Positions 1,365 through 63,555 of a DNA stretch of 64,000 nucleotides are shown piece by piece. Location: positions 620,001 through 684,000 of the forward strand of contig NC_135820.1 in assembly GCF_964213995.1 (NCBI RefSeq). The letters are read 5' to 3'. Under the pieces are notes generated by a model that did not search any database, had not been told where the DNA came from, and saw nothing but the letters and a program-made list of their open reading frames with translations. The position numbers and the translations under genes were made by a program. Every line of letters begins with the position of its first letter. The stretch's first letter is position 1. The stretch is from Mustelus asterias (lineage: Eukaryota).

Positions 1365-3060
1365 TTCAGTACTGAGAATGCTGCACTGTCAGAGTGTCAG
1401 TACTGAGGGAGTGCTGCACTGTCAGAGGGTCAGTACTGAGGGAGTGCTGCACTGTCAGAGTGTCAGTACTGAGGGAGTGCTGCACTGTCAGAGGGTCAGT
1501 ACTGAGGTAGTGCTGCACTGTCAGGGGGTCTGGACTGAGGGAGTGCCGCACTGTCAGAGGGTCAGAATTCAGTGAGCGCCGCACTGTCAGAGGGTCAGTA
1601 CTGAGGGAGTGCCACACTGTCAGAGGGTCAGTACTGAGGGAGTGCCGCACTGTCAGAGGGTCAGTACTGAGGGAGTGCCGCACTGTGAGAGTGTCAGTAC
1701 TGAGGGAGTGCCGCATTGTCAGAGGGTCAGTGCTGAGGGAGTGCCGCACTGTCAGAGGGTCAGTACTGAGAGAGTGCCGCACTGTCAGAGGGTCAGTACT
1801 GAGAGAGTGCCACACTGTCAGAGGGTCAGTACTGAGGGAGTGCCGCACTGTCAGAGGGTCAGAACTGAGGGAGTGCCGCACTGTCAGAGGGTCAGAACTG
1901 TACGAGTGCCGCACTGTCAGATGGTCAGTACTGAGGGAGTGCTGCACTGTCAGAGGGTCAGTACCGAGGGGGTGCTGCACTGTCAGAGGGTCAGTACTGA
2001 GAGAGTGCCACACTGTCAGAGGGTCAGTACTGAGGGAGTGCCGCACTGTCAGAGGGTCAGAACTTAGAACATAGAACATAGAACAGTACAGCACAGAACA
2101 GGCCCTTCGGCCCACGATGTTGTGCCGACCTTCATCTGAAACCAAGATCAAGCTATCCCACTCCCTACCATCCTGGTGTGCTCCATGTGCCTATCCAATA
2201 ACCGCTTCAATGTTCCTAAAGTGTCTGACTCCACTATCACTGCAGGCAGTCCATTCCACACCCCAACCACTCTCTGCGTGAAGAACCTACCTCTGATATC
2301 CTTCCTATATCTCCCACCATGAACCCTATAGTTATGCCCCCTCGTAATAGCTCCATCCACCCGAGGAAATAGTCTTTGAACGTTCACTCGATCTATCCCC
2401 TTCATCATTTTATAAACCTCTATTAAGTCTCCCCTCAATCTCCTCCGCTCCAGAGAGAACAGCCCCAGCTCCCTCAACCTTTCCTCATAAGACTGACACT
2501 GCAAACCAGGCAGCATCCTGGTAAATCTCCTCTGCACTCTTTCCAGCGCTTCCACATCCTTCTTATAGTGAGGTGACCAGAACTGCACGCAATATTCCAA
2601 ATGCGGTCTCACCAAGGTCCTGTACAGTTGCAGCATAACCCCACTGAGGGAGTGCCGCACTGTCAGAGGGTCAGAACTGTAGGAGTGCCGCACTGTCAGA
2701 TGGTCCGTACTGAGGGAGTGCTGCACTGTCAGAGGGTCAGTACTGAGGGAGTGCCGCACTGTCAGAGGGTCAGTACTGAGAGAGTGCCACACTGTCAGAG
2801 GGTCAGTACTGAGGGAGTGCCGCACTGTCAGAGGGTCAGAACTGAGGGAGTGCCGCACTGTCAGAGGGTCAGAACTGTAGGAGTGCTGCACTGTCAGATG
2901 GTCAGTACTGAGGGAGTGCTGCACTGTCAGAGGGTCAGTACTGAGGGAGTGCTGCACTGTCAGAGGGTCAGAACTGTAGGAGTGCCGCACTGTCAGATGG
3001 TCAGTACTGAGGGAGTGCCGCAATCCCGGAGGGTTTGAACCGATGGAGTGCTGCAACATC
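1365..3060 (+). repeat. 33-bp minisatellite (GAGGGTCAGTACTGAGGGAGTGCCGCACTGTCA)n, interrupted by a CR1 LINE
   Basis: Tandem 33-nt unit, seen as 11-aa periodic ORFs (PHCQRVSTEGV). Confidence 0.95.
2065..2642 (-). mobile_element. 5'-truncated CR1-clade LINE (RT C-terminus, 3' UTR, (GTTCTAT)n tail)
   Basis: LYRTLVRPHLEYCVQFWSPH...LERVQRRFTRM...RRRLRGDLIEVYK; absent from the paralogous array at 7855-8500. Confidence 0.9.
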
Positions 3061-6416: not shown

Positions 6417-6698
6417 GTTCCACAGTGATGGTGATGGACCCCTCCACTGCTCCATGTTCATTCTCTGCCACACACTGATAGTCTCCAGTGTCCCTGGATG
6501 TAACGTGAGGAATAACCAATCGCAGCTCATTGCTGGATCTTGTTCTGTTTATTGGGACATTAAGATGTCTCCAGGTCAGGTTAGAAGCTGGGAAGCTCTC
6601 GACAGAGCAGATTATCACCGTTGAATTCCCCTCAGTTATACTGATCCATGAAGAGTTAATCATATCAGGAGAAGTCATTGTGACATTCCGTGGTGCAT
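6417..6698 (-). CDS. Siglec-like gene A, C2-set Ig exon (domain 3)
   Basis: ag|ATGCACCA...GAAC|gtgagt; 282 nt, phase 1-1; canonical C-W-C Ig residues, several N-x-S/T sequons. Confidence 0.88.
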
Positions 6699-7854
6699 CT
6701 AAAAACAAATAAGGATTTTACTGTGAGCAAACACAATGCAGGACGCCATGCTTCATCTCTCTGCATCTGATGTCGATCTGCATTTCCAGGCATCTTCCCT
6801 CAATATAAGTTCCTATGTCACATTTACAATGTGGGTGGGTGTGAGGTAGGCATGTGTGCGTGTTGTGTTCATGTGTGTGTGTTTGTGTGGCCTGTTCACA
6901 TACGCTTGGAATGTGTGTGTGTAATATGCATGTGTGTATCATGTGTGTGTGTCTGTGCATGTGTATGCGTGTGTGCCTGTGAATGTGTGTGCGTGTGTGT
7001 GTGTGCTGTGCATGTGTGTATCGTGTGTATGGTGTGCATGTGTGTGAATTTGTTGAATGTTGTGTGTGTGTTTGTGTGTGTGTGTCCAGTAGGCATGTGT
7101 GTGGTATGTACGTGTATGGTGTGCATGTGAGTGTGATGTGTGCTTGTGTGGCCTATGAGTGTGTGCGTGTCTTTGTGTGCAGTAGGTGTGTATGTGTGCA
7201 TGTGTGCTGTGTGCATGGGTGTGGTGTGAGTGTGCCGTTTGCATGTGTGTGTTGTCTGAGTGTGTATGTGTGTGCGATTGCAGAATGCTATGTTCTCAAA
7301 GCCATGCAAGTGATCATAAAACTGTGGAAATCATACTTTATTTTTTGTGCTTACTTTAAAATGGGCTTTGCTAAACCAATAGATGGCTGGATTGGGCACA
7401 GTTGCTGGAAATTTCGTACAGCAGTTAGAGGGAGTTCTGGAGTTCCAACTTCATCCTTGTGGAATCTCACACCTTATTGGAAGAACACTTTATATACCAG
7501 GGAACCAGAGGACGAGCAGACGATATTCTTCAAGAGAGGCCCCTTGGATTTTGACTTTCTGGACTCGAGCAATCAAGTGAACTGCTGTCCATTTCTGTGG
7601 TTCTCCGTCCTGTTAACTATACTTATCATTGAAAGTCCCCCTTCCCGATCCCAGACTGTATACCTGTGTGCAGCAGTGTATGATGTTGACGGCTGTACTT
7701 TAGGTTAAACAGAGATTCCATGATGCATCTCCAAACAAATTTGGATCAATTAACGTGCATTGTTTGTGGGGAACTTTGTGACCCTGAGAATGTGAAAGGT
7801 GTGATATCAATGTAGGGTCCTTCACCTCAAAGCACGGAAACCAGACGCTTCAGT

Positions 7855-8500
7855 TCAGTACTGAGAATGCTGCACTGTCAGAGGGTCAGTACTGAGGGAG
7901 TGCTGCACTGTCAGAGTGTCAGTACTGAGGGAGTGCCGCACTGTCAGGGGGTCAGTGCTGAGGGAGTGCTGCACTGTCAGAGGGTCAGTACTGAGGGAGT
8001 GCTGCACTGTCAGAGTGTCAGTACTGAGGGAGTGCCGCACTGTCAGGGGGTCAGTGCTGAGGGAGTGCCGCACTGTCAGAGGGTCAGCACTGAGGGAGTT
8101 CTGCACTGTCAGAGGGTCAATACTGAGGGAGTGCTGCACTGTCAGAAAGTCAGTACTGAGGAGTGCCGCACTGTCAGAGGGCCAGTACTGAGGGAGTGCC
8201 GCACTGTCAGAAGGTCAGTACTGAGGGAGTGCCGCACTGTCAGAGGGTCAGCACTGAGGGAGTGCCGCACTGTCAGAGGGTCAGTACTGAGGGAATGCCG
8301 CACTGTCAGAGGGTCACTACGGAGGGAGTGCTGCACTGTCAGAGGGTCAGTACTGAGGGAGTACTGCACTGTCAGAGTGTCAGTACTGAGGGAGTGCTGC
8401 ACTGTCAGAGGATCAGTGCTGAGGGAGTGCCGCACTGTCAGAGGATCAGTGCTGAGGGAGTGCCGCACTGTCAGATGGTTTGAACCGATGGAGTGCTGCA
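7855..8500 (+). repeat. 33-bp minisatellite (paralog of 1365-3060)
   Basis: Same tandem unit. Confidence 0.95.
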
Positions 8501-10238: not shown

Positions 10239-10730
10239 TGGTTTCTTGATTCAGTTGTCACTGAACCAGACAAACAAGCCTGAAAAATTCTCCTTGCAGT
10301 GAAGGTCTACACAGGCTGAACTTGTCACTATCAACAGAGGAAGAGCTAAACATTCCCAAAATAAAATGAACTACATTGGAAGACTGATTGACGTCACCTG
10401 GAGGGAAGTGTGTCATGCTGTAAATGCTTAAAGACATGTTGAACAGCCCACTTCAGTGATTGCATGAATAAGCTTCCTCTTACATATCTCACCCTTCTTG
10501 AAGTATTTACTCACTGGGAATAGAGAAACAAAGTAATTTTGTGGTTTTCATACCATTATTTACTCTTTTCTTTCTCAGCCTGTTCAATCTGTAGTTATAT
10601 TTCATGGCATTTTCCCCCAGTCTAAGTTCCTGCGTCATTTGCAGTGAAAACTGCATATGTGTTTCTTTTTGTTCATTCACAGGATGAATTCACATTGTGA
10701 ATTGTTGAGTTATTATAACACAGAACTTAC

Positions 10731-11096
10731 CAGAAACGCGAAGCCGGGTTACAGGGTAGTAGCTGTAACTATTCTTTTTGTCAAATTCTATTCTGAAATA
10801 ATAAGGTCCAGCATCTCCCCGTGTGATGTTGTTTATAATCAGGGAACAGTTGCCATCTTTCAGGTCTCCAGACAGCCGGGTCTGATGGTGGAATTGTGGT
10901 GCCTCCTGATTGTGATCCCCGGAGTGAAAGGCGATAGATGATGATGAATATTCCTCATTATTAAACCAGATTCCGACTCGCGGCTGGTTTGCCAAATGTG
11001 ATGGATAACTGTACTGACATGGAATCTGTACACACACACCTTCCTGTGTTGTCACCTCTTGTGGAGTGTTGCCTTTCCACTCCTGTGACAGTCCAA
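10731..11096 (-). CDS. Siglec-like gene A, V-set (sialic-acid-binding type) exon
   Basis: ccag|TTGGAC...TCTG|gtaagt; 366 nt; VTTQEGVCVQIPC...W...GDLKDGNCSLIINNITRGDAGPYYFRIE (B-E strand Cys pair, essential Arg). Confidence 0.92.
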
Positions 11097-11822
11097 CTGG
11101 GGAGAGAAATATCAATATTTAACACTGGATGGTTTGTAGATCCACGAGACCAATATCCACCCCCTCCGTCACTGGTGCACAGTGGCTGCAGTGTGGACCA
11201 TCTACAGGACGCACAAGAAACTCCCCAAGATTTCACAATCGATGAAAGAGAATCCTGGAAATAGGAGTGGACCAGTTCATTCTACATTGACTCATGGTCC
11301 TCAGGACCCTGTTTAATGGTGTCAGTCTCCACCCAACACAATGTCTACAAGAATGAGATACATTCAGTGCTGATTTACAAGGCAGGACAATGGATTAGGA
11401 GCCGTCAGAACTCCCACCATTTTCACCATCATGAATCACTGATTAGCCTCACTTTCCTGGATCCTCATTGTCTCAGGCAAGAGTTCTTAAACCTTTTTGG
11501 TTTAAAGAGCCCTTTTCAGTGGATTATTAATCATGGACCCCCAATCTAATTTCTAATGCTGATGAACATTCCTCACTCAAGGCCACTAAGTTTTAATCAT
11601 ATGTTTAAGAAAACTGGTAATTTGTTCAAGTTATAGTTTAACATCAATGTGACTGATTTAGAGACCATGATGAAACAGACCAGAGAAACCAGCGATAAAG
11701 GATAAGTGCGACTCCATAGGATTGCATCAGATATCAAACAAATACACAGACCATTCGGCCTATCTGCTGCATGCCGCTGCTGCTGCTCCTCACAAGACTC
11801 CTCTCAATCCCCTGTTATTAAT

Positions 11823-22829: not shown

Positions 22830-23172
22830 GTTGGTCAGGGTGTTTCACACCACTTCTCTTACCTGAGGCAGGAGGTCATGGGTTTGAGACACCATTCCTG
22901 AGAATGGAATCCCATAATGCAGATCAACACTCCTCAGTGTCATTACTGAAGGAGCGCAGCACTGTTGGAGGGTCAGTACTGAGGGAGTGCAGCACTGTCA
23001 GAGGGTCAGTACTGAGGGAGTGCCACACTGTCAGAGGGTCAGTACTGAGGGAGTGCCGCACTGTCAGAGGGTCAGTACTGAGGGAGTGCTGCACTGTCAG
23101 AGGGTCAGTACTGAGGGAGCGCCACACTGTGAGAAGGTCAGTACTGAGGGAGTGCTGTACTGTCAAAGGGTC
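22830..23172 (+). mobile_element. DeuSINE (SacSINE1-like) 5' part running into the 33-bp minisatellite
   Basis: Degenerate tRNA-like head followed by CAGTGTCATTACTGAAGGAGCGCAGCACTGTTGGAGG then tandem units. Confidence 0.55.
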
Positions 23173-23490: not shown

Positions 23491-23812
23491 TGTTCATATT
23501 CAATCAAATCAAATCCAATTCAGAGTCTCAACAAGTTGAGACATTTCAGATCCAGGCTGACAAGACAGGGCGAGCGACCAAATCACCCTGTCCTGGGCCT
23601 GATCTACATGAGCCAAGCTGATTGGAGGAGGGAAAGCAATACCTCCTCCAAGACTTGAGCTCATTTGCATCTTAGCCAAAAGGCCGAGATGCCGCTTTTA
23701 AAAATTGCTTCATATGAAACATATGAAGCTTCAGTGTAACCTAATGACCTCAACCAAGTGCAGCATCCAATCCATACTACACTTGATCTTAGCCAAAAGG
23801 CCGAGAAGCGAT
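23491..23812 (-). mobile_element. U2-snRNA-headed ~320-bp retroposed element
   Basis: 23812-23774 = U2 nt 1-39 exactly (ATCGCTTCTCGGCCTTTTGGCTAAGATCAAGTGTAGTAT); second U2 piece (nt 7-27) at 23689-23669; hairpin-rich body; (GATTT)n tail; empty paralogous site at ~48270-48300. Confidence 0.75.
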
Positions 23813-24424
23813 CCAAATGCTTCTTACAGTCGAACCTAGCATGGAAAAGGTGCAGCTTTCAGAAAGCACATTCTGATCTAATTACTAAGCTGAGCAACAT
23901 CACATTTCTGTTCATTACTATTCGACCATGTTGGCTGCACACAGTGAGACAATGCCTTGGTTATGATGTGTCCACACAGCAGGACTGGGGAGCAGCAGGA
24001 ATAAGGAAAAGTTTCAGCTTGCTGAGGAGAAGAAGGAAAATCTCTGGTTCCAGGTTTCTCTCCATACATTAAGAAGCACGCATGCTGATGTTCCATTGCT
24101 CTCTGTCTGCTGATAGCACTCTGCTTGGAAATTGCAGTTTATGCTGATGGGAAGAACAAGCTTTTCAGAAATAGAGGGATTGAGGAGAAAATAGGGAGGT
24201 TCTGCTGAGCATTTCTCAAGTTCTGGTTAGGTCACAACTAGAATACTGTGTCCAGTTCTGGTCCCTCACTTTGGGAAGGATGGGAGGGTCCTTGAGAGGG
24301 TACGGAGGGGGATTTACCAGAATGGGTCCAGGGATGAGGGGATTTTAGCTTGGAGGTCCGGGTTGGAGAAGCCAGGGTTGTTCCCCTTGGGACGTAGAAG
24401 ATTGAGGGGGGATTTGAGTGAGGT

Positions 24425-28530: not shown

Positions 28531-29907
28531 AGCCCCTGGTAATTAGAAAACAGATTGGAGAGAATTGGTAAAAGAACCAGAGGTGGGGGAGATGAGGAGA
28601 ATTTTATTTTGGACACACAGCGAGTTGTTGTGATCTGGAAGGCGCTGCCTGAAAGGGCGGTGGAAGCAGATTCAATTAAAACTTTCAAAAGGGGCAATTG
28701 GAGAAATACTGGAAGGAGGAAAATTTACAGGGATATGAGGGGAAAAGCAGGGAGGAACAGTGGGGAGTAATTCAAATAGGCTCGATGAGCTGAATGGCCT
28801 CCTGTGCTGTATTCTATGATTCCATGATCTCTCCCCCAGTCAAGGGCCGGGATTCTACTGCCCCGTCCACCACAGGAATCAGAGCAGGTGAGGGGCAGAC
28901 AATGGTAAAGTCCGTTGACCTCGGGCGGAATTTTCCGGTTTCATGATGAGCAAGGGACTTTACTTGAATTTCAGGATCATTGCAAGATTACTCCCACTGC
29001 ATCCTCAATCTTTGCAGCTACTTCTGTTAATATCCTGGGATGCAACATATCAGGTGCTGGGGACTTAACGGTCTATAGTTCCATCAGTTTCCCAAATACT
29101 TTTTCTCGTGATAATTATTGTATCTATTTCCTCCCCCCCCCCACCACCACCGTCTCCCCCCCACCCATTTTGCTGCCCCTCGATTATTTTGCATTTTTGG
29201 ATGTTATTAGTGTCTTCCTATATGAACACTGAACAAAGTATTTATTTAACTCCTCTGCCATTTCCTGGTTCCGCATTATTACCTCCCCAGTCTCACTCTC
29301 TAAATGCGCTATGTTCACTTTGGCCTCTTGCTTCCTTTGTATATATTTGACGAGGCTCTGACGGGGAATAAAGCCAAATGCTTTGCCCTCAGTTCAATTC
29401 TGAACTGTTCACTTGTTCCATAATATTAACCCAAAACACAGCTTATTATAACACAGTGATTATCAATAACCTGGTGATAGCTTCAGTTCAGTCCGAAAGC
29501 AACCTCTGATACTCATTTTAATGTCAATGATTAAATGTACTGACTGCGTCCATCGATAACCTTCCTTCCAACATAAGGACAGAAGTGGGGATGTTCACTG
29601 ACGACTGCACAATATTAAGTGCCATTCGTGACTCCTTAGATTCTGAAGCAGTCCATGTAAAAATGGAGCAAGACCTGGGCAATATCCAGGATTGGGCACA
29701 CATGTCGCAAGTAACATCCACGCCACACAAGTGCCAGGCAATGACCATATCCAACAAGAAAGCATATAACCACCGCCCCTTGACATCCAATGGCATTACC
29801 ATTGCTGAATCCCCCACTATCAACATCCTGGGGGTTACCATTATAATGCCCTAACTACATCTTATTATCTTACGTGAATTGTTGAATAATCATAACACAT
29901 CACTTAC

Positions 29908-30276
29908 CAGAAACATGAAGCCGTGTTACAGGCAAATAGCTGTAGCTATTCCTGCTGCCAAATTCTATTCTGAAATAATAAGGTCCAGCATCTTCCCATC
30001 TGACGTTGCTTATAATTAGGGAACAGTTGCCATCTTTCAGGTCTCTAGACAGCCGGGTTCGATTGTGGAACCGTGGCAACTTGTGATTGTGATCCTTGGA
30101 GTAGAAAGCGAGGAGGACATTGGGAATATGTTCCTCATTATCAAACCAGCCTCCATCTCGTGGTTGATTCTCCAGACATGATGGGTAACTGTAATGGCAT
30201 GGAATCTGTACACCTGAACCTTCCTGCGCTGTCACCTCTCGTGGAGTGTCACCTTTCTACTCTTGTGACAGTTCAG
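29908..30276 (-). pseudogene. Gene B second V-set exon (pseudo)
   Basis: Acceptor AG->AA; in-frame TAG at 30259-30257 (Trp codon in paralogs); SCVQ->SGVQ; donor intact; YYFR retained. Confidence 0.88.
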
Positions 30277-30504
30277 TTGCGGACAGAAATATCAACATTT
30301 AACACGAGATGGGTTATAGATCCACTGGACGCAAAATGTACAGATGAGAGTGATTGGGGGATAGGCAATACTGAGGAGTCTACAATCAATCTGTTTGGCA
30401 GGATGGATACAAAAACAGAATATTATTTAAAATGAAAGGGATTACAGACTGGAGTACAGAGGGATCTGAGCGTCCTTGTCCATGAATCACAAAATGTTTG
30501 CATT

Positions 30505-32519: not shown

Positions 32520-33950
32520 CTCCGAGAGAGCACCTTACCCTGGTAACAAATGTATGGATGAGAGTTTCAGCAATTGATGTGCTGAGATGGGGTAAAGTTG
32601 CGTGATGTTCCAGAGATGGAATTAGGTGGTCTTAGTGATGGCACGGATATGAGGTCAGAAATTCATCTCAGGATCAAATGTGACACCAAAATTACGACCA
32701 GATTGGATTAATGTCAGAGAGCTTCCAGGGAGAGGGATGGAGTCGGTCGCTCGGGAACGGAGTTTGGAATAGGGACTGTAAACAATGGTTTTCATTGGAG
32801 GAGGATGGTGCGGTCACCGTGTCAAAGGCTGCAGACAGGTGGAGAAGGACGAGGAGAGAAAGTTTCCCTTTGTCACAGACACACAGGGTGTCATCAGTGA
32901 CTTTGATAAGAAATGTTTCAGTACTGTGGCCGGGGCAGCAACCTGATTGGAGGAATTCAACCATGGAGTTCCGGGAAAGATGGGAACGGATTCAGGAGAT
33001 GAAAACACGTTCAAGAACTTTGGAGGTGGGAGAGAGGTTGGAGACAGGACAGGAGTTTATAAGGATGGAGTGGTCAAGATTTGTCTTTTGAGGAGATGGT
33101 TGATCTGAAGGAGAGAGGAGTGACAAACAACAAAAGTGAACTATTAACAATGTCAGCTGGCATGGAGACCAGGAGGGGACATTGTCCAGTCAGCAGTTTG
33201 CTGGGAAAAGGGTCAAGGGAACAGGAGGTGGCTTTCATGGACAAGCTGTGTTCAGAATGGGAATGAAGGAAGAAAGGAGGGAAACTGGGGAAAGATGTGA
33301 GTTCAGGGAGAGGGTCGGGATGCAGGTGCATCAGAGGAATTTTGTCCCAGTGGTTATTGGAAGGGAGGGACACGGCACAAGTAGCTGATTGGCTTGTCTC
33401 AATCTTAGTGACCGAGGATCCATGAGTTATCAGCAGCTGGTCTTCCTTTAGGAGAATGTTTTCCTTGTGGGCATCAGGTGGAGAGTGATCTCAGAGGAGA
33501 GAGAGCAGGATGTATTAAGATGGAGATTGAGATCTCTGAGAATAAGAATTCATTTAGTGCAGTGACTGAGTGAGGAAAGCAGTGAAGATGTTCTGGTGAG
33601 AACATTTTTATCATATCTGGGAGGGCGATGGAGAACGGGGATTTTGAAAGAGAGGTGAGAGGGATAGAACACGGTGAGATGTTCAAAAGAGGAGAAAGTG
33701 ACAGAGGAGTCGGGGAGTCGGGAAACAGTGGGGCGGGGGGGGCGTGGTCAGGTCAAGGTGAGATTTGGTGATAAGCTCCACACTACCATCACACCTGATT
33801 TGACAGAGTGACTGGTGGAGGCTGTAGCCAGGAGTGGGGGGGGCGGGGGGAGGGGGGATCAGGTTAAAAAAGTGATTTGGTAATTAGATCCTCTCCACCG
33901 CCACCGATTTTGACAGAGTATTGGAGGTGTAGACAGGAATGGCGGGGGGG
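32520..33950 (-). mobile_element. Degenerate L2-clade LINE
   Basis: HSTETFLIKVTDD...LLVLLHLSAAFDTV (RT); SCSLDPFPSKLL; endonuclease remnant ~33450-33700. Confidence 0.75.
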
Positions 33951-34170
33951 GGGGGGGGGGGGCTTCGTTGAAGGGGAAGGTGTCATCACTCCTCAGCTAT
34001 GTTTACATTAAGGTGAAGATCTTTGTTCAATATGTCGATTCAATCAGATACAAGTTCATGGATCATTAAAAATAGTGACACTGGTTAACACAGCCACAAA
34101 ACAAGCAAATCAAACATTGGGATGTGTTATTTCCTATTGAGTGTGGGGTGTGAGTTCAGTAATTATAACA

Positions 34171-34536
34171 CAGAAACATGAAGCCGGGTCACAGGATAGT
34201 AGCTGTAACTATTCTTGTCAGTAAATTCTATTTTGAAATAATATGGTCCTGCATCTGCCCATCTGATGTTGTTTATAATGAGGGAACAGTTGCCATCTTT
34301 CAGGTCTCCAGACAGCCGGGTCTGCTGGTGGAACCATGATGATATACTATTGTGATCCTTGGAGTGAATGGCTATAGAGGATGTTCCCTGTTTCTCGTTA
34401 TTGTACCAGATTCCATCTCGCGGCTGGTTTGCCAAATGTGATGGATAACTGTAATGACGTGGAATCTGTACACACGAACCGTTCTGCGCTGTCATCTCTC
34501 GTGGAATGTTGCTTTTCCACTTCTGTGATAGTCCAA
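34171..34536 (-). pseudogene. Gene B first V-set exon (pseudo)
   Basis: Open frame, but B-strand Cys->Arg (IPRH), essential Arg->Lys (YYFK), and splice donor removed by a 10-nt deletion between CAGAA repeats. Confidence 0.88.
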
Positions 34537-35759
34537 CTAGGGAGAGAAATATCAACATTTAACACTGGATGGATTGCAGATCCACCAGACTCGATATCCA
34601 CCCCGTCCGTCACTGGTGCACAGTGGCTGCAATATGGACCATCTACAGGACACACAAGGAACTCTCCAATGTTTCACAATGGATGGATGGAAATCCCCGT
34701 TCTCCATCGCCCTCCCAGATATGATAAAAATGTTCTCACCAGAATATCTTCACTGCTTTCCTCACTCAGTCACTGCACTAAATGAATTCTTATTCTCAGA
34801 GATCTCAATCTCCATCTTAATACATCCTGCTCTCTCTCCTCTGAGATCACTCTCCACCTGATGTCCACAAGGAAAACATTCTCCTAAATGGCTCATGGTC
34901 CTCAGGACGCTGTTTAATGAAGCCAGTCTCCACCCAACACAATGTTTACAAGACACACCAATGGAGGTGCATTCAGTGCTGATCGACAAGGCAGGACAAT
35001 GGATTAGGTGTCCCCATAGCTCCCACCATTTTCACCGTCACGAATCACTCATTAGCCTCACCTTCCTGGATCCTCAGTGTCTCAGACAGTGGTTCTGATT
35101 GTAATTTGCTTTTAAGGGATAAAAAGTATCACATCACTCGTGGGGAAGTATGTGATCTAGTCTTAGTTTCACTTTGACCTGTGAGCAGAACACAGCACAC
35201 ACGGCTCTGCTGCTGGTGTCTTCAAGCTTTCTACCCATGTACATGTTTTCATGTGCCTAGTCTAAATAATTGAATCCACAACATATTTATATAATCCCTA
35301 GTGGGTGATTGGTGCTTTTATATCATCATGAAAACACAACATGATGTTCAGCGGTGGTCAAACATTCTGGCAGCAAGATTCAGTACAGGTACGACACGGT
35401 GAACAGCCTTCAGTCACGCTACATAACATGAGACCACCCTGGACACTTTGATCAGACACAACAGTTGCAGTGTCGGAGAATGTTGATTTCACAGCTGCTG
35501 ACTGTACAGGAAATCTTTGAAAACAGAAACACAGACATGAAGTGATTGACAAACCAAAAGATGACAGTGATGTGCACAATGAGAGGAAGAGCGTTGATCG
35601 ATATTTCACTTTATACACATATCCTGAAATGGCCCAACAATGAATTGCAGACCGTAATCCATAAAGATCTCTGAAATTAAAATATTCAGAGTGTGTGTAA
35701 CAGTTGTGCTCGGTGATGTTATCGTCCAAACTGATGTTACCACTGGACAACTCAAATAG

Positions 35760-38290: not shown

Positions 38291-38437
38291 TGCTCTCCTC
38301 TAACTCTGCTGTCAGACAAGGAGTCAGTGTATATTAGTGAGGATGTGGAGATGCCGGCGTTGGACTGGGGTAAACACAGTAAGAAGTTTAACAACACCAA
38401 GTTAAAGTCCAACAGGTTTATTTGGTAGCAGAAGCCA

Positions 38438-38474
38438 CACAAGCTTTCGGAGCTCTTAGCCCCTTCTTCAGGTG
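38438..38474 (-). ncRNA. Minimal hammerhead ribozyme motif in the Penelope terminal repeat
   Basis: Reverse complement of the 40189-40225 motif. Confidence 0.6.
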
Positions 38475-40188
38475 AGTGGGAATTCTGTTCACAAACAGAG
38501 CTTATAAAGACACAGACTCAATTTACATGAATAATGGTTGGAATGCGAATACTTACAACTAATCAAGTCTTTAAGAAACGAAACAATGTGAGTGGAGAGA
38601 GCATCAAGACAGGCTAAAAAGATGTGTATTGTCTCCAGACAAGACAGCCAGTGAAACTCTGCAGGTCCACGCAACTGTGGGAGTTACAAATAGTGTGACA
38701 TGAACCCAATATCCCGGTTGAGGCCGTCCTCGTGTGTGCGGAACTTGGCTATCAGTTTCTGCTTAGCGACTCTGCGCTGTCGTGTGTCGCGAAGGCCGCC
38801 TTGGAGAACGCTTACTCGAATATCAGAGGCCGAATGCCCGTGACCGCTGAAGTGCTCCCCAACAGGAAGAGAACAGTCTTGCCTGGTGATTGTCGAGCGG
38901 TGTTCATTCATCCGTTGTCGCAGCGTCTGCATAGTTTCCCCAATGTACCATGCCTCGGGACATCCTTTCTTGCAGCATATCAGGTAGACAACGTTGGCCG
39001 AATTGCAAGAGTATGTACCGTGTACCTGGTGGATGGTGTTCTCACGTGAGATGATGGCATCTGTGTCGATGATCTGGCACGTCTTGCAGAGGTTGCTGTG
39101 GCAGGGTTGTGTGGTGTCATGGTCACTGTTCTCCTGAAGGCTGGGTAGTTTGCTGCGGACAATGGTCTGTTTGAGGTTGTGCGGTTGTTTGAAGGCAAGA
39201 AGTGGGGGTGTGGGGATGGCCTTGGCGAGATGTTCGTCTTCATCAATGACATGTTGAAGGCTCCGGAGGAGATGCCGTAGCTTCTCCGCTCCGGGGAAGT
39301 ACTGGACAACGAAGGGTACTCTGTCCACTGTGTCCCGTGTTTGTCTTCTGAGGAGGTCGGTGCGGTTTTTCGCTGTGGTGCGTTGGAACTGTTGATCATG
39401 AGCCTTCAACATGTCGTTGATGAAGACGAACATCTCGCCAAGGCCATCCCCACACCCCCACTTCTTGCCTTCAAACAACCGCACAACTTCAAACAGACCA
39501 TTGTCCGCAGCAAACTACCCAGCCTTCAGGAGAACAGTGACCATGACACCACACAACCCTGCCACAGCAACCTCTGCAAGACGTGCCGGATCATCGACAC
39601 AGATGCCATCATCTCACGTGAGAACACCATCCACCAGGTACACGGTACATACTCTTGCAATTCGGCCAACGTTGTCTACCTGATACGCTGCAAGAAAGGA
39701 TGTCCCGAGGCATGGTACATTGGGGAAACTATGCAGACGCTGCAACAACGGATGAATGAACACCGCTCGACAATCACCAGGCAAGACTGTTCTCTTCCTG
39801 TTGGGGAGCACTTCAGCGGTCACGGGCATTCGGCCTCTGATATTCGAGTAAGCGTTCTCCAAGGCGGCCTTCGCGACACACGACAGCGCAGAGTCGCTGA
39901 GCAGAAACTGATAGCCAAGTTCCGCACACACGAGGACGGCCTCAACCGGGATATTGGGTTCATGTCACACTATTTGTAACTCCCACAGTTGCCTGGACCT
40001 GCAGAGTTTCACTGGCTGTCTTGTCTGGAGACAATACACATCTTTTTAGCCTGTCTTGATGCTCTCTCCACTCCCATTGTTTCGTTTCTTAAAGACTTGA
40101 TTAGTTGTAAGTATTCGCATTCCAACCATTATTCATGTAAATTGAGTCTGTGTCTTTATAAGCTCTGTTTGTGAACAGAATTCCCACT

Positions 40189-40225
40189 CACCTGAAGAAG
40201 GGGCTAAGAGCTCCGAAAGCTTGTG
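40189..40225 (+). ncRNA. Minimal hammerhead ribozyme motif in the Penelope terminal repeat
   Basis: CAC-CTGAAGA-A-GGGGC(TAAGA)GCTCC-GAAA-GCTT-GTG. Confidence 0.6.
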
Positions 40226-40439
40226 TGGCTTTTGCTACCAAATAAACCTGTTGGACTTTAACCTGGTGTTGTTAAACTTCTTACTATATTAGTGAGCACA
40301 GGGGTGATGGGTGAATGGGAATTGATCTGAGTTTGTACACTGGGTCACTGCTGAATTGGTTCCCAATGAGAGCTCAACAAGAATGATCTTTTATAAAGAC
40401 TATTAACCATAAATCTGTCCGAGCTGGCGATGATATTAC

Positions 40440-47460: not shown

Positions 47461-48449
47461 TGTTATGATCATTCTTCACTTGAGAATCCTTGGAGTCATT
47501 CAGGCGGCTGAGGGAGAATCTGAACGAAAGGAAATATGAATAGAAACAGAAAGTGCTGGAAAAACCCAGCAGGTCTGGCAACATGTGTGGAGAGAGAGAG
47601 AGACAGAGTTTACATTTTGAGTCCAATGTGACCTTGTGGCAGCATCAATGTTGTAATGTTAGAAATGTGGCAGGCAATTTGTGCACAGCAAGATCCCACA
47701 AACAGCCGTGAGACACTGGCCCAGATAGAACCACAGCATCCCTACAGGGCATTAAGAGGCCATCCGGCCCATCAATTCCGCACCGACTCACCTAAAGAGC
47801 ATCACACAAGGACTGACCCTGTGTACTCCCAGGCTCTGTCTTAAAATTATGTTTTCCTCTTGGCAAGACAGAGATGGACGGTTGGAAAACACCTTTCACC
47901 AGAATTCTGTCTGAGCAATAAGGCAAATACAGCCAATAAAACCACTCTGATTACCAACATCATAAACATGGATAAAACACGACCTTTGGTCATACCTGTG
48001 TGTTACCAATATTGTAAATAAAGGGGAAATGTCTGAGAGGCAAAATGTTGATGCTCGGACACCACCATGGCAGGAGGATGTAATTACAATGTGACATGTT
48101 TACATGGGAATTTTCCATTGCAAATGAAAACACAGGAATTTAAATAATAAAATTGGCTTGTGGCAACAGGAAATTGTGCTTTGGAGATAGGAATCATTCA
48201 CGAGAGTATGATATTTAATTTGAAAAAAATGTATGGAACCATCTGAGCATTTAAATTGCTTGTAGTAATAGATGAAAAATTATACAGAACTCAGCAGCTT
48301 CTTGCAATTTTGAAAGCATGAAAAAGTTGCAGCACTCAGAAAGCACATTCAGAACTCTTTTCAAAATTTCAACAACATTATATTTTTGTTCATTACTATT
48401 CTACCCTATTTGCTTCACACACCCCACAGCCCCTCTCCCCGCTTCACAC

Positions 48450-48624
48450 TCAGTTTCGCTGGAATCTGAGCTGTGCGTATTCCGTGACCTCGCTCCTGTG
48501 CACAGTCCCATCACCGCTGGGCAGCACCAAGAAGTTGATGTTGGCGTAGAGAAGGTTGTCGGGTCTGTTGGTGTGTCCATGGATATGTGCGTGAGAGCAG
48601 CTGCAGCAACTCTCATTCCAGGCA
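48450..48624 (-). CDS. Siglec-like gene C, terminal cytoplasmic exon with ITIM and ITSM-like motifs
   Basis: ccttctcctgtag|T GCC TGG...; phase 2: (N)AWNESCCSCSHAHIHGHTNRPDNLLYANINFLVLPSGDGTVHRSEVTEYAQLRFQRN*; this frame is not in the ORF track. Confidence 0.85.
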
Positions 48625-48869
48625 CTACAGGAGAAGGAAGGTCAAAGGGAGATAGTTAAAATGTCCAATAACGTCCACCATTTAAAATGAATTGTATCTG
48701 ACCTACTCTCTGAATTCAGAATGTTTAAACTGTACAGAGCTGTGGTTTCTTAATTCTGTTTTATCTGAACCAGAAAAGCAAACCACAAAATTAGGAATGA
48801 AAGTTTATACAGGCTGAAAACACCAGGAGCTAAAAGATCCCTAAAAGAAATGGACTACATTGTAAGACC

Positions 48870-54842: not shown

Positions 54843-54974
54843 CTAAAAACAAATGAAGATCAGTTAACTTACATGGACTGTGAATTACTTTGAGAGACTC
54901 TGAGAATGTGAAGGTGTGATATCAACATAGGTTCCTTCACCACAAACCGGGTAAACCAGAGACAAACTTTAGTT

Positions 54975-56140
54975 CAGTCCTGTGAGAGTGCGCACTGTCA
55001 GAGGGTCAGTGCTGAGGGAGTGCCGCACTGTCAGAGGGTCAGTGCTGAGGGAGTGCCGCACTGTCAGAGGGTCAGTACTGAGGTAGTGCTGCACTGTCAG
55101 AGGGTCAGTACTGTGAGAGTGCCGCACTGTCAGAGGGTCAGTGCTAAGGGAGTGCCGCACTGTCAGAGGGTCAGTGCCGTGAGAGTGCCGCACTGTCAGA
55201 GGGTCAGTGCTAAGGGAGTGATGCACTGTCAGAGGGTCAGTAGTGAGGGAGTGCCGCACTGTCAGAGGGTCAGTACTGAGGGAGTGGCGCACTGTCAGAA
55301 GGTCAATACTGAGGGAGTGCCACACTGTCAGAGGGTCAGTACTGAGGGAGTGCCGCACTGTCACAGGGTCAGTACTGAGGGAGTGCCGCACTGTCAGAGG
55401 GTCAGTACTGAGGGAGAGCTGCACTGTCAGAGGGTCAGTACTGAGGGAGAGCTGCACTATCAGAGGGTCAGTACTGAGGGAGTGCCGCACTGTCAGAGGG
55501 TCAGTACTGAGGGAGTGCCACACTGTCAGAGGGTCAGTACTGAGGGAGTGCCGCACTGTCAGAGGGTCAGTACTGAAGGAGTGCCACACTGTCACAGGGT
55601 CAGTACTGAGGGAGCACTGCACTGTCAGAGGATCGGTACTGAGGGAGTGCCGCACTGTCAGAGGGTCAGTACTGAGGGAGTGCCACACTGTCGCAGGGTT
55701 AGAATCTTAGAATCATAAAATCCTGCAGTGCAGAAGGAGACCATTCAGCCCATCTAGTCTGCACCGACCACAATCCCACCCAGCCCGTATTCCATAATCC
55801 CATGCATTTACCCTAGCTATTACCCCTGATACTTACGGGCTATTTAGCATCGCCAATCCACTTAACCTGCACATCTTTGGACTGTGGGAGGAAATCGGAG
55901 CACCCATGCAGATAAGGGGAAAACGTGCAAATTCTACACAAACAGTGACCCAAGGTGGGAATCGAATCCAGGTCCCTGGCGCTGTGATGCATCAGTGCTA
56001 ACCTCTGTACCACCGTGCCACCCTTAGAGGATTAGTACTGAGGGAGTGCTGCGTTGTTGGAGGGTCAGGGCTGAGGGAATATTGCAATTTTAGAGGGTCA
56101 GTACAGAGGTAGTGCTGAACTGTCAGAGGTTCCATCTTTC
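54975..56140 (+). repeat. 33-bp minisatellite with inserted HE1-like SINE (55700-56023, minus), ending in Deu-domain-like sequence
   Basis: Same unit and same intron position as in gene A. Confidence 0.9.
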
Positions 56141-58315: not shown

Positions 58316-58879
58316 ATTCCATTTGCCAACTTTCTGCCCAGGTAGTTAACCTATCAACATCTCTTTGTAAACTGTTTGTATCCCTCTTGCTCAGGTTATT
58401 AATCAGGTTATTGATCAGATTGCTGTCTGTGGGAGCTTGCTGTGCACAAATTATTCACTAATAAATCCAATCTGGAATTCAGCAGGGACTCATTTACCAC
58501 AGTGTTCAGAATGTGAAATTCAGGAATTATTTAATTGTCTGTGAATCAATTTGTGATGTCCTGAGGTGGTGACAGGTGCTATAGAAATGTGAGTCTTTCT
58601 TGTGCCGATATGTCAGACTATTAAACAGGATGAGAGAGATCGATGGGATTGGATAACCCGATAACATTGATGGACGCAGTCAGTATATTTAATCATTGAT
58701 ATTAAAGTGAGTATTAGAGGTTGCTTTAGGACTGAACTGGAAGCTATCACCAGGTAATTGATAAGCAGACACTGTAATAATAAGCTGTGTTTTGTGTGAA
58801 TATGTAAACATCACAGTTTGTGTTATTTCCCATTGAGTGATGAATGTGAATTATTGAGTAATTATAACACAGAACTTAC

Positions 58880-59245
58880 CAGAAACGTGAAGCTGGGTTA
58901 CAGGGTAGTAGTTGCATCTATTCTTGCCGTCAAATTCTATTCTGAAAAAATAAGGTCCAGCATCTCCCCGTCTGACGTTGTTTATAATCAGGGAACAGTT
59001 GCCATCTTTCAGGTCTCCAGACAGCCGGGTCCGATTGCGGAACCGTGATGATATACTATTGTGATCCTTGGAGTAAAAGGCTACAGACGATGATGATTGT
59101 CCCTTGCCATTATACCAGACTCCATCTCGTGGTCGGTGTCTCAGACACGATGGATAACTATACTGACATGGAATCTGTACACACGAACCTTCCTGCGCTG
59201 TCACCTTTTGTGGAGTGTCACCTTTCCATTCCTGTGACGGTTCAG
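58880..59245 (-). CDS. Siglec-like gene C, second V-set exon
   Basis: ccag|CTGAAC...TCTG|gtaagt; 366 nt; AEPSQEW...SCVQIPCQYSYPSC...GNCSLII...DAGPYFFRIE...NRCNYY. Confidence 0.9.
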
Positions 59246-59697
59246 CTGGGGTGAGAAATATCAACATTTAACACTGGATGGATTGTCAATCCTCAAAATG
59301 TACAGATGGGAGTGAATTGGGGCCATGATCAATACCGAGGAGGACTGCAGTGAATTACAGGAAGATATTAATAAATATACTGGATGGACAGATAATTGAC
59401 AACTGAATTTCAACATTAATAAATGTGAAGTATTATATCTTGGTTCGAAAGATGAGGAGTTTGCATCTGACCTCGAAAACGTAAATCGAAATGGATTAGA
59501 GGAACAGTTTGATCTGAGAAACAAATACACAAATCAGTAAAGGTAGAGATACAGGTGAACAAAGTGATGAAACAAACAATCCAAACATGAGAGATTATTT
59601 CTAGAGGGATGGAATTCGGAAAGTCGAGAAGTTATCTTCAACCTGTCTTGAACCTTGGCCAGACCACAGCTGGAGTAACGAGTACAGTTCTGGTCAC

Positions 59698-60930: not shown

Positions 60931-61597
60931 TATTATACAAAAGGTTGGAGAGACACTGGAGAGGGTGATAAAAAGATTTACAAGGATGATATTGGAAATG
61001 TGAGGGTTTATCTGTCAGGTGCAGATGAATGAACTGGGTCTCGATTCTCCTGAAAAGAGAAGGTTCAGGCTTGACCATATAGAGAACAGTAACATTCGGA
61101 AAGGCTTTGGTGTAGAGGAGACACAGGGAGAAAGTTTCCACTTGTGAGGAAGATAGACCCAGAGGCTAAAAATATAAGATAGTCACTAATAAATCCAATC
61201 CGCAATTCAGAAGATTCTTATTTGTCCAGAGAATGGTGAGAATGGAGAAATTCAGGAATTAATTCATTGCCTGTGATCTGAGGCGGTGACAGGCGCTATA
61301 GAAATGTGAGTCTTTCTTTTCTCGATATGTTAGACTTTTAAACAGCATTAGAGAGATCTATGGGATTGGATAACCCGATAACATTGATGGACGCAGTCAG
61401 TACATTTAATCATTGATATTAAAGTGAGTATTAGAGGTTGCTTTAGGACTGAACTGGAAGCTATCACCAGGTTATTGATAACCAGACACTGGGTTATAAT
61501 AAGTTGTGTTTTGTGTCAATATGTAAACATCACAGTTTGTGTTATTTCCATTGAGTGATGAATGTGAATTATTGAGTAATTATAACACAGAACTTAC

Positions 61598-61963
61598 CAG
61601 AAACCTGAAGCTGGGTTACAGGGTGGAAGCTGTAATTATTTCTGTTCTCAAATTCTATTCTGAAATAATAAGGTCCTGCATCTCCCCGTGTGACGTTGTT
61701 TATAATCAGGGAACAGTCGCCATCTCTCAGGTCTCCAGACAGCCGGGTCCGATGGCGGAACTGTGACAACTCACGATTGTGATCCTTGGAGTGAAAGGCG
61801 ATAGATGATACATTCCGTATCTCGTTATTGTACCAGATTCCAACTCGCGAATGGTTTGCCAAATGTGATGGATAAGTGTAATGACATGGAATCTGCACAC
61901 ACGAACCTTCCTGTGCTGGCACCTCTCGTGGAGTGTTGTCTTTCCACTCTTGTGACAATCCAA
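61598..61963 (-). CDS. Siglec-like gene C, first V-set exon
   Basis: ccag|TTGGAT...TCTG|gtaagt; 366 nt; VGLSQEW...SCVQIPC...GDCSLII...DAGPYYFRIE. Confidence 0.92.
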
Positions 61964-62760
61964 CTGGCGAGAGAAATATCGACATTTAACACAGGGAGCT
62001 GAATATCAACACCCTTTTCAAATTTTCTAGCACGGTGTGAATGGACAGGAAGTGGGATGCTGAACAGCCTGTCTATTCTCGGAGCTTCTATGTTGTTTTC
62101 GTGGAACATTCTGACCAAAATTAGCAAAAGGCAGATAGTCTGAGCCAAGGCTATCAGAGGCGCAGCATCAGATTTCATCCCCAGTTTTTATCCCAGTCTC
62201 TCTACTCCACTGTTACTTGCTCATCTCCATTGGTTGCAGGCTCAGAAATGCCTCGTATTTAAAATTCTCATCCTCAATTTCCAAACCCTACATCAATCCC
62301 CACTCGATTTCCTATCTCTGTAACCTCCTCCAGCCCCGACAACGCTCGCTGTCTCTGTGACCTCCTCCCACCCCTACAACCCTTCCTATCTCAGTACCTC
62401 CTCCAGTCCGAACAACACTCCCTATCTGTGTAACCTCCTCCAGTGCCGACAATCCTCCCTATCTCTGTAACCTCCTCCAGCCCCCATAACACTCCCTATC
62501 TCTGTAACCTCCTCCAGCTCCTACACCTCTCCCTATCTCTGTAACCTCCTCCAGCCCACACATCCCTCCTATCTCTGTAACCTCCCATCAGACGGGGAGT
62601 CAGTGTATATCAGTGAGCACAGGGGTGATGGGTGAATGGGACTTGGTGAGAGTTTGTACACTGGGTCACTGCTGAATTGGCTCCCAATCAGAGCTCAATA
62701 AGAATGATCTTTTACAAAGACTATTAACCATAAATCTGTCCAAGCTGGCGATGATATTAC

Positions 62761-63304: not shown

Positions 63305-63555
63305 AGTAAGAAGTCTCACAACACCAGGTTAAAGTCCAACAGGTTTATTTGGTAGCAAATACCATAAGCTTTCGGAGCGCTGCCCCTTCGTCAGATGGAG
63401 TGAAAATCGACAGATTTTCACTCCATCTGACGAAGGGGCAGCGCTCCGAAAGCTTATGGTATTTGCTACCAAATAAACCTGTTGGACTTTAACCTGGTGT
63501 TGTGAGACTTCTTACTGTGCTTACCCCAGTCCAACGCCGGCATCTCCACATCATG
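63305..63555. mobile_element. Penelope terminal-repeat hairpin insertion (104-bp perfect arms, 4-nt spacer) within Rex1
   Basis: 63305-63408 is the exact reverse complement of 63413-63516; 3' end matches the 38342-38430 Penelope end; flanked by imperfect GAC..ACAAGAAA duplication. Confidence 0.85.
63423..63459 (+). ncRNA. Minimal hammerhead ribozyme motif (mirror copy 63362-63398, minus)
   Basis: CCAT-CTGACGA-A-GGGGC(AGC)GCTCC-GAAA-GCTT-ATGG. Confidence 0.65.

Follow-up and report, generated by a model that had tools for sequence, protein, structure and literature searches.

A minus-strand insertion of about 312 bp, running from 23812 to about 23500 within a Siglec gene cluster, was found to begin with an unchanged copy of the first 39 nt of U2 snRNA and to continue with a structured body that folds back on this head. 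On balance we read the insertion as the retrocopy of a short noncoding RNA that was rebuilt from U2, namely a LINE-dependent retroposon similar to the SINEU elements but of independent shark origin. The copy would be young and full-length, and it is the only one in the window, by which we mean the whole 64-kb stretch of DNA that was analysed. Comparison with known systems suggests that the element is an snRNA-headed retroposon with a self-masking arm, undescribed in the literature compared.

The window is filled by a Siglec-like gene cluster in which V-set and C2 exons are present. The best named matches of one V-set exon were Siglecs of Carcharodon (74% identity) and Rhincodon (66%), which agrees with the shark host of the sequence-only reading. 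Repeats are abundant and presumably CR1-, Rex1-, and Penelope-like, judging from sequence features. The insertion itself (23498..23812, minus strand) was delimited by comparison with a paralogous empty site at 48060..48421, situated 3' of a Siglec-like last exon. Both flanks of the element align to this site at 74–82% identity and approximately 312 bp are absent there, which bears out the sequence-only reading, in which the segment had been called an insertion because the paralogous flank lacks it. The flank of the element is thus paralogous to the region after a Siglec last exon; this exon (48452-48640) carries two tyrosine-based motifs, which we take to be of the inhibitory type.

The best-scoring ends of the insertion fall within 23810-23818 on the 5' side and within about 23498-23507 on the 3' side, with an uncertainty of about 8 nt; the previously proposed 3' end at 23491 had to be given up. 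The sequence ATTTGG at the 5' junction (23813..23818, minus strand) is ambiguous and could be a short target duplication or a microhomology with the tail, possibly with one extra G. Comparison with the paralog revealed no clear target-site duplication; a duplication that is short and imperfect, or a microhomology, is the most that can be made out. A B-box-like 7-mer (23830-23836, minus strand) lies some 20 nt upstream of the head, in a part of the flank that differs from the paralog; it is probably a chance match. Neither a C2 nor a last exon was detected after the two V-set exons upstream of the element, and this Siglec gene copy may be a fragment.

The U2 head occupies 23774..23812 of the minus strand and includes the branch-point recognition hexamer at 23775-23780. 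Read from 23812 to 23774 it is identical to nt 1-39 of human U2 as printed in S1 Fig of PMC4640811, and the element departs from the human sequence at nt 40; the comparisons with full-length U2 were made by eye against printed sequences. The 5' end of the element lies exactly at U2 +1. U2 (RF00004) was the sole Rfam match above threshold in the 64 kb (23609-23812, 55.4 bits, gathering score 46), and in this alignment element nt 1-204 (approximately 205) are collinear with the whole U2 model. The printed sequence and the Rfam match thus agree with the exact U2 nt 1-39 reported earlier. The score also justifies the earlier warning that the element may be mis-annotated as U2, and since such copies pass Rfam as U2, shark annotations that include them would overstate the number of U2 genes. 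With 0 of 39 positions changed, the divergence of the head is bounded at less than 7.4%. Set against the difference of 18–26% between the flank and its paralog, the intact head indicates that this copy of the element is young.

The sequence after nt 39 had been described as non-U2. It does diverge from U2 at nt 40, but nt 47-75 turned out to be antisense to U2 nt 11-39. This antisense arm (23738..23766, minus strand) is joined to the head by a 7-nt loop (23767..23773, minus strand) and pairs with U2 11-39 at 25 of 29 positions, eight of them as G·U, giving a 25-bp hairpin with two 2x2 internal loops. Of the 127,944 29-mers of the window, leaving aside the exact complement of the head, the arm forms the most pairs with the head (25; next best 23). 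Compared with a perfect inverted copy it carries 12 changes, eight transitions and four transversions, the latter forming the two 2x2 loops. All eight transitions are A>G or C>T and keep the pairing as G·U (P 0.012), and the 12 changes in the arm stand against none in the head (two-sided P 5e-4). The masking hairpin is found on the U2-sense minus strand only (z -5.3 versus -1.7).

By this fold-back of the arm the branch-point recognition sequence of U2 is predicted to be buried. The computed probability of being unpaired is below 0.005 for the hexamer in the element, compared with about 0.9 at five of its six positions when the head is folded alone, and enforcing stem–loop I over the masking hairpin costs 8 kcal/mol. 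In trans, the duplex of the arm with U2 is calculated at -34.6 kcal/mol and ends exactly at nt 39.

As the intact head caps decay after insertion at about 7%, the changes in the arm are most likely older than the present copy. The wobble-keeping transitions (8/8) together with the unchanged head argue that the arm was most likely under selection at the RNA level before this young copy was made. The template would most likely have come from an RNA lineage which was selected for structure and whose U2 head was kept constant or renewed, judging from this one sequence rather than from covariation. Two further observations concern this region. Element nt 39-48 can be read as two TGGAT pentamers resembling those of the tail; a TGGAT/TTGAT pentamer is seen at the 5' junction, right after U2 nt 38 (23765-23774), and in the tail (23498-23522, both minus strand). 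The arm was also considered as a snoRNA or scaRNA guide for U2, with a CUGA 3 nt after it; this candidate was rejected, as Rfam lent it no support and the presumed target would be paired through wobbles.

The 322 nt examined fold with -143 kcal/mol (z -10.3), and none of 100 shuffled sequences was as stable. The hairpins named in the sequence-only reading are all present in the minimum free energy and centroid folds, except that the last one has 7 bp and a 4-nt loop instead of 8 bp and 2 nt. Ranked by fold strength among 215 windows of 150 nt, those overlapping the element take ranks 2-4; 213 of the windows tile the minus strand and two element-overlapping ones, both within these ranks, were added by hand. 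The only stronger fold is that of a perfect inverted repeat at 63.3 kb.

Downstream of the arm the element follows the order of U2 with altered parts. Stem–loop IIa is lost, the U2 model positions after 39 being unmatched, and stem–loop IIb is replaced by a perfect 10-bp hairpin (23707..23729, minus strand; mean pair probability 0.86). Between two hairpins there is an unpaired Sm-site-like sequence A-A-U5-A (23699..23706, minus strand; probability unpaired above 0.9 in the fold, placed by the Rfam alignment), which lacks the G that comes after the U-run in U2, where the Sm site is at nt 99-106. The position of stem–loop III is taken by a second stem–loop I (23667..23692, minus strand). This copy, noticed already in the earlier reading, was verified as 23/24 identical to U2 nt 4-27; its stem is longer by 3 bp, to which the sole change contributes by creating a pair. 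A long hairpin (23608..23664, minus strand) with AUUGC in its 10-nt loop (23632-23641) is collinear with U2 stem–loop IV in the Rfam alignment. Around this loop, 14 of 17 positions are identical to the printed mouse U2 and 13 of 17 to the human one; the Sm-like run starts at element nt 108 compared with 99 in U2, and an 8-nt match in the loop region of stem–loop IV at 170 compared with 157 (all by eye). The last long hairpin, of about 23 bp (23547..23606, minus strand), is non-U2.

An Sm-like site in a linker and an AUUGC in a loop, in the order of U2, occurred in a fraction of 3e-4 of 200,000 structure-fixed shuffles, and the same two motifs irrespective of structure in 0.27% to 1.2% of 20,000 shuffles, depending on the positional limit; in both tests the motifs were those picked after viewing the Rfam alignment. 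The U2 3' domain contributes only about 11 bits to the Rfam score (55.4 versus 44.2) and by itself gives no U2 call in Rfam, and the Sm-like site and the stem–loop IV loop each deviate at a conserved base. Judged by these sequence features, the Sm-like site and the AUUGC hairpin are probably degenerate relics of the U2 3' domain. In U2 the Sm proteins bind the Sm site, and U2B''/U2A' bind stem–loop IV (PMC5435868). Taken together, the arm and the relics of the 3' domain make the body resemble a rebuilt U2 more than a foreign LINE fragment.

We considered four alternatives to a LINE-dependent retroposon. First, the element could derive, as a retropseudogene, from a functional U2 paralogue that is specific to sharks and present in few copies, serves as a decoy, regulator or switch and has its own snRNA promoter, and not be a member of a mobile family. 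The collinearity of nt 1-205 with all of U2 above the gathering score, the Sm-like and loop-IV-like motifs retained in their proper context, and a structure that appears to be under selection would all fit such an RNA. Transcription of divergent variants of U2 is known in human (bioRxiv 2020.01.24.917260), and a short duplex of U2 itself, SLIId, masks the same hexamer (bioRxiv 2021.08.01.454689). On the other side, the element differs from U2 snRNA in that stem–loop IIa is missing, the hexamer is in a long duplex, a copy of stem–loop I replaces stem–loop III, and 110 nt are added at the 3' end. This extension, with its hairpin and pentamer tail and without poly(A), is LINE-like, both protein-binding motifs are degenerate, and SINEU elements typically carry duplicated U2 heads (PMC4494074). 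We regard a U2 paralogue as unlikely, though the most probable of the four alternatives. The element at its present site is not a U2 gene, although Rfam calls it U2: positions -26 to -131 align to the paralogous flank and contain no proximal sequence element, so that the U2 promoter that had been suggested is absent from this copy, and no match to the 3' box consensus was found downstream.

The approximately 110 extra nt beyond the U2-collinear part end in a terminal hairpin and a pentamer tail. The hairpin (23525..23542, minus strand; 7 bp, 4-nt loop) is a candidate for the stem recognized by a LINE, and LINE/SINE pairs of the stringent type typically end in a 3' stem–loop (PMC3747384). Instead of the regular (GATTT)n tail described before, there are five imperfect pentamers of the TTGAT type (23498..23522, minus strand), the last one or two of which possibly belong to the host sequence; pentamer repeats are indeed present, but only two perfect GATTT units occur in this short, imperfect tail, and there is no poly(A).

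In the 64-kb window only one copy of the element was detected by BLASTN with 7-nt words and by a pattern search allowing three mismatches; a SINE-like family, as proposed in the sequence-only reading, is putative on this count. A 26-nt pattern of the body had no match in prokaryotic genomes, which is uninformative for a shark element. Translated-frame searches for exonised or spuriously translated copies, which are weak tests, were done with two of the six frames. The plus-strand frame of 56 aa gave no copy at near or longer lengths, and the minus-strand frame of 53 aa gave seven weak matches (29–58% identity, one without a value), mostly to repeats in several stretches and judged unrelated from the table. 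The 3' end of the element was found in none of ten 170-nt stretches beside LINE-like ORFs in the window, several of which are fragments or not true 3' ends. A Rex1-like LINE, as we presume the clade to be, was rejected as the partner, the tails of the Rex1-like LINEs in the window being the reverse complement and thus of opposite polarity.

The second alternative is an internally deleted, nonautonomous derivative of Keno or Utopia that was cotranscribed from a U2 gene, with the arm being the 5' end of the LINE adapted to its target RNA. Keno, of the Tx1 clade, and Utopia share the insertion site 38|39 in U2 (PMC4640811, PMC6136364), and the U2 match of the element ends at nt 39, i.e., 1 nt past this common site; the sequence-only reading had put the insertions of these elements at about this position. 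Reptile Utopia elements also insert outside U2, with relaxed specificity (PMC4640811), TCTGT is found in the paralog close to the empty site, and 13 nt of the tail region occur in the 3' end of Utopia-1_PMi of the bat star, an AT-rich match found by eye that is probably due to chance. However, the proposed descent from a U2-targeting LINE was not borne out. Keno and Utopia encode a reverse transcriptase and an endonuclease, whereas the longest reading frame inside the element has 62 aa; they are usually followed by U2 from nt 39 onward, whereas the 3' flank of the element is paralogous Siglec-cluster sequence. The pentamer tail is unlike the AATAAA-type ends of vertebrate Utopia elements (PMC4640811), and each of four motifs of the element had zero or one unrelated occurrence in ten Utopia supplements of the same paper. 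Much of the body is moreover accounted for as rebuilt U2; the sequences compared were those of Utopia. The element is neither Keno nor Utopia, and we give little credence to its derivation from either of them.

Third, the insertion could be a one-off chimera, made when reverse transcription of U2 1-39 switched to an unrelated structured fragment, or by a duplication that folded back at the time of insertion and then decayed neutrally. The single copy in the window would fit, and U2 retrocopies that are chimeric or truncated at the 3' end are frequent (PMC5322556, PMC4494074). Yet neutral decay should strike both arms of the hairpin and both directions of change, and the observed ratios are 12:0 and 8:0. 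Furthermore, the arm, the second stem–loop I and the relics of the 3' domain tie the body to U2 before insertion. Probable selection on the arm prior to insertion is the main argument that makes a one-off event quite improbable. Finally, a DNA-level repeat (MITE, Helitron or cruciform) or an artefact of assembly, with hairpins that mean nothing as RNA, is hardly credible: most hairpins of the element do fold on the plus strand as well (z -8.0), but the number of G·U pairs favours one strand (13 versus 3, P 0.011), no inverted repeat connects the two ends, and the element starts exactly at an snRNA 5' end.

Among known retroposons the element comes closest to SINEU, a resemblance already seen in the first reading. 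SINEU-1, -2 and -3 are snRNA-headed SINEs reported from crocodilians only, and all groups have poly(A) (PMC4494074). SINEU heads are derived from U1 or U2, as is the exact U2 1-39 of the element. SINEU-1 contains internal segments derived from U snRNA by repeated head addition; the second copy of U2 4-27 corresponds to them and may have arisen in this manner. In SINEU-3 a U2 with internal alterations is joined to a 3' end of non-U2 sequence. SINEU and the element alike are shorter than 500 bp and have oligo-T runs and no internal promoter. The element differs in its host, a shark, in having a pentamer tail and 3' hairpin instead of poly(A), and in not being inserted in Mariner-N4, and a head-masking antisense arm is not described for SINEU in the available text of PMC4494074. 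Because poly(A) is missing and the target is different, we conclude that the element is not a member of SINEU although it would work like one; it is set apart by tail, target and host and not by a comparison of sequences.

Neither is it a pol III SINE. Runs of 4-5 T occur at element nt 15, 109, and 132, and such internal U-runs exclude pol III, as they do in SINEU. No tRNA was found in the element, and no match to a B-box-like consensus lies inside it. HE1, SacSINE1, and CmiSINE are likewise short LINE-dependent elements, found in cartilaginous fish and partnered by CR1/L2 (PMC3747384, PMC5499810), but they have tRNA heads and pol III boxes, both of which are absent here. A hammerhead- or HDV-like ribozyme, as in retrozymes and R2-type 5' ends, was rejected after empty descriptor scans and a best Rfam HDV match of E 3.7; a miRNA precursor was rejected as all Rfam matches were far below the gathering score. 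By titles and beginnings of abstracts, no U2-headed shark element was described among the matches listed, the search covering literature other than Repbase Reports, Dfam, and subscription journals, and none is mentioned in the available text of PMC7245038, PMC5499810, PMC3747384, and PMC4640811. A U2-headed family may already be catalogued in Repbase or Dfam.

For a LINE-dependent retroposon rebuilt from U2 the following course can be proposed. The source RNA would be transcribed from a master copy controlled by a U2 promoter, the simplest case being a master inserted in a U2 gene at 38|39. Alternatively, the arm might seize a real U2 snRNA in trans, which would be copied once the reverse transcriptase had switched templates at nt 39. 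In the computed structure, U2 11-39 is covered by the arm, so that neither the branch-point recognition sequence nor the 3' side of stem–loop I is left open. As the spliceosomal face is closed in this way, the RNA should neither act as U2 nor poison it. The Sm-like site and the AUUGC loop might, on slight evidence, still confer snRNP-type stability and traffic between nucleus and cytoplasm. A stringent-type LINE reverse transcriptase would recognize the pentamer tail together with the 3' hairpin and copy the RNA up to its 5' end, and priming by microhomology would leave little or no target duplication. The present copy is probably inert.

A bolder version, which we think rather unlikely, would make the retroposon a counterfeit U2 snRNP. 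Its Sm and stem–loop IV signals would provide for snRNP export, capping, and import while the head is silenced; the arm would grip U2 in trans, and a jump of the reverse transcriptase would supply every new copy with an unused head, which could pair with U2 genes and regain a promoter.

If a separate origin in sharks holds true, the design of an snRNA-headed SINE recurs beyond crocodilians. The paper describing SINEU left their mode of transcription open (Kojima 2015, PMC4494074). The anatomy of the element bears on how such heads are acquired, whether in cis through a U2 promoter or in trans from U2 RNA, and on whether masking of the branch-point recognition sequence makes a U2-headed parasite tolerable.

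Several other features of the window were noted. The near-perfect inverted repeat of about 100 bp at 63305-63516 (z -10, strongest fold of the 215 windows) is inserted in a LINE fragment and is related to the ends of a Penelope-like element at 38335-38488 and 40175-40285. The young element at 38378-40285, presumably Penelope-like, has an 886-bp inverted repeat with 98.9% identity and two GIY-YIG-type ORF ends. An inverted pair of 198 bp with 99% identity (33447-33644 and 34691-34888), which may stem from a recent inversion or from insertion as a pair, lies on either side of the V-set exon 34155-34558. This exon is one of five Siglec V-set exons, the others being at 10702-11113, 29879-30298, 58851-59267, and 61569-61985. 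A tandem duplication (1-2008 and 6490-8496, 95.8% identity, period of about 6.5 kb) repeats a Siglec C2 exon, and one 33-bp minisatellite occurs at five sites of the cluster (1366-2064, 2643-3022, 7855-8500, 22939-23172, and 54974-55699).
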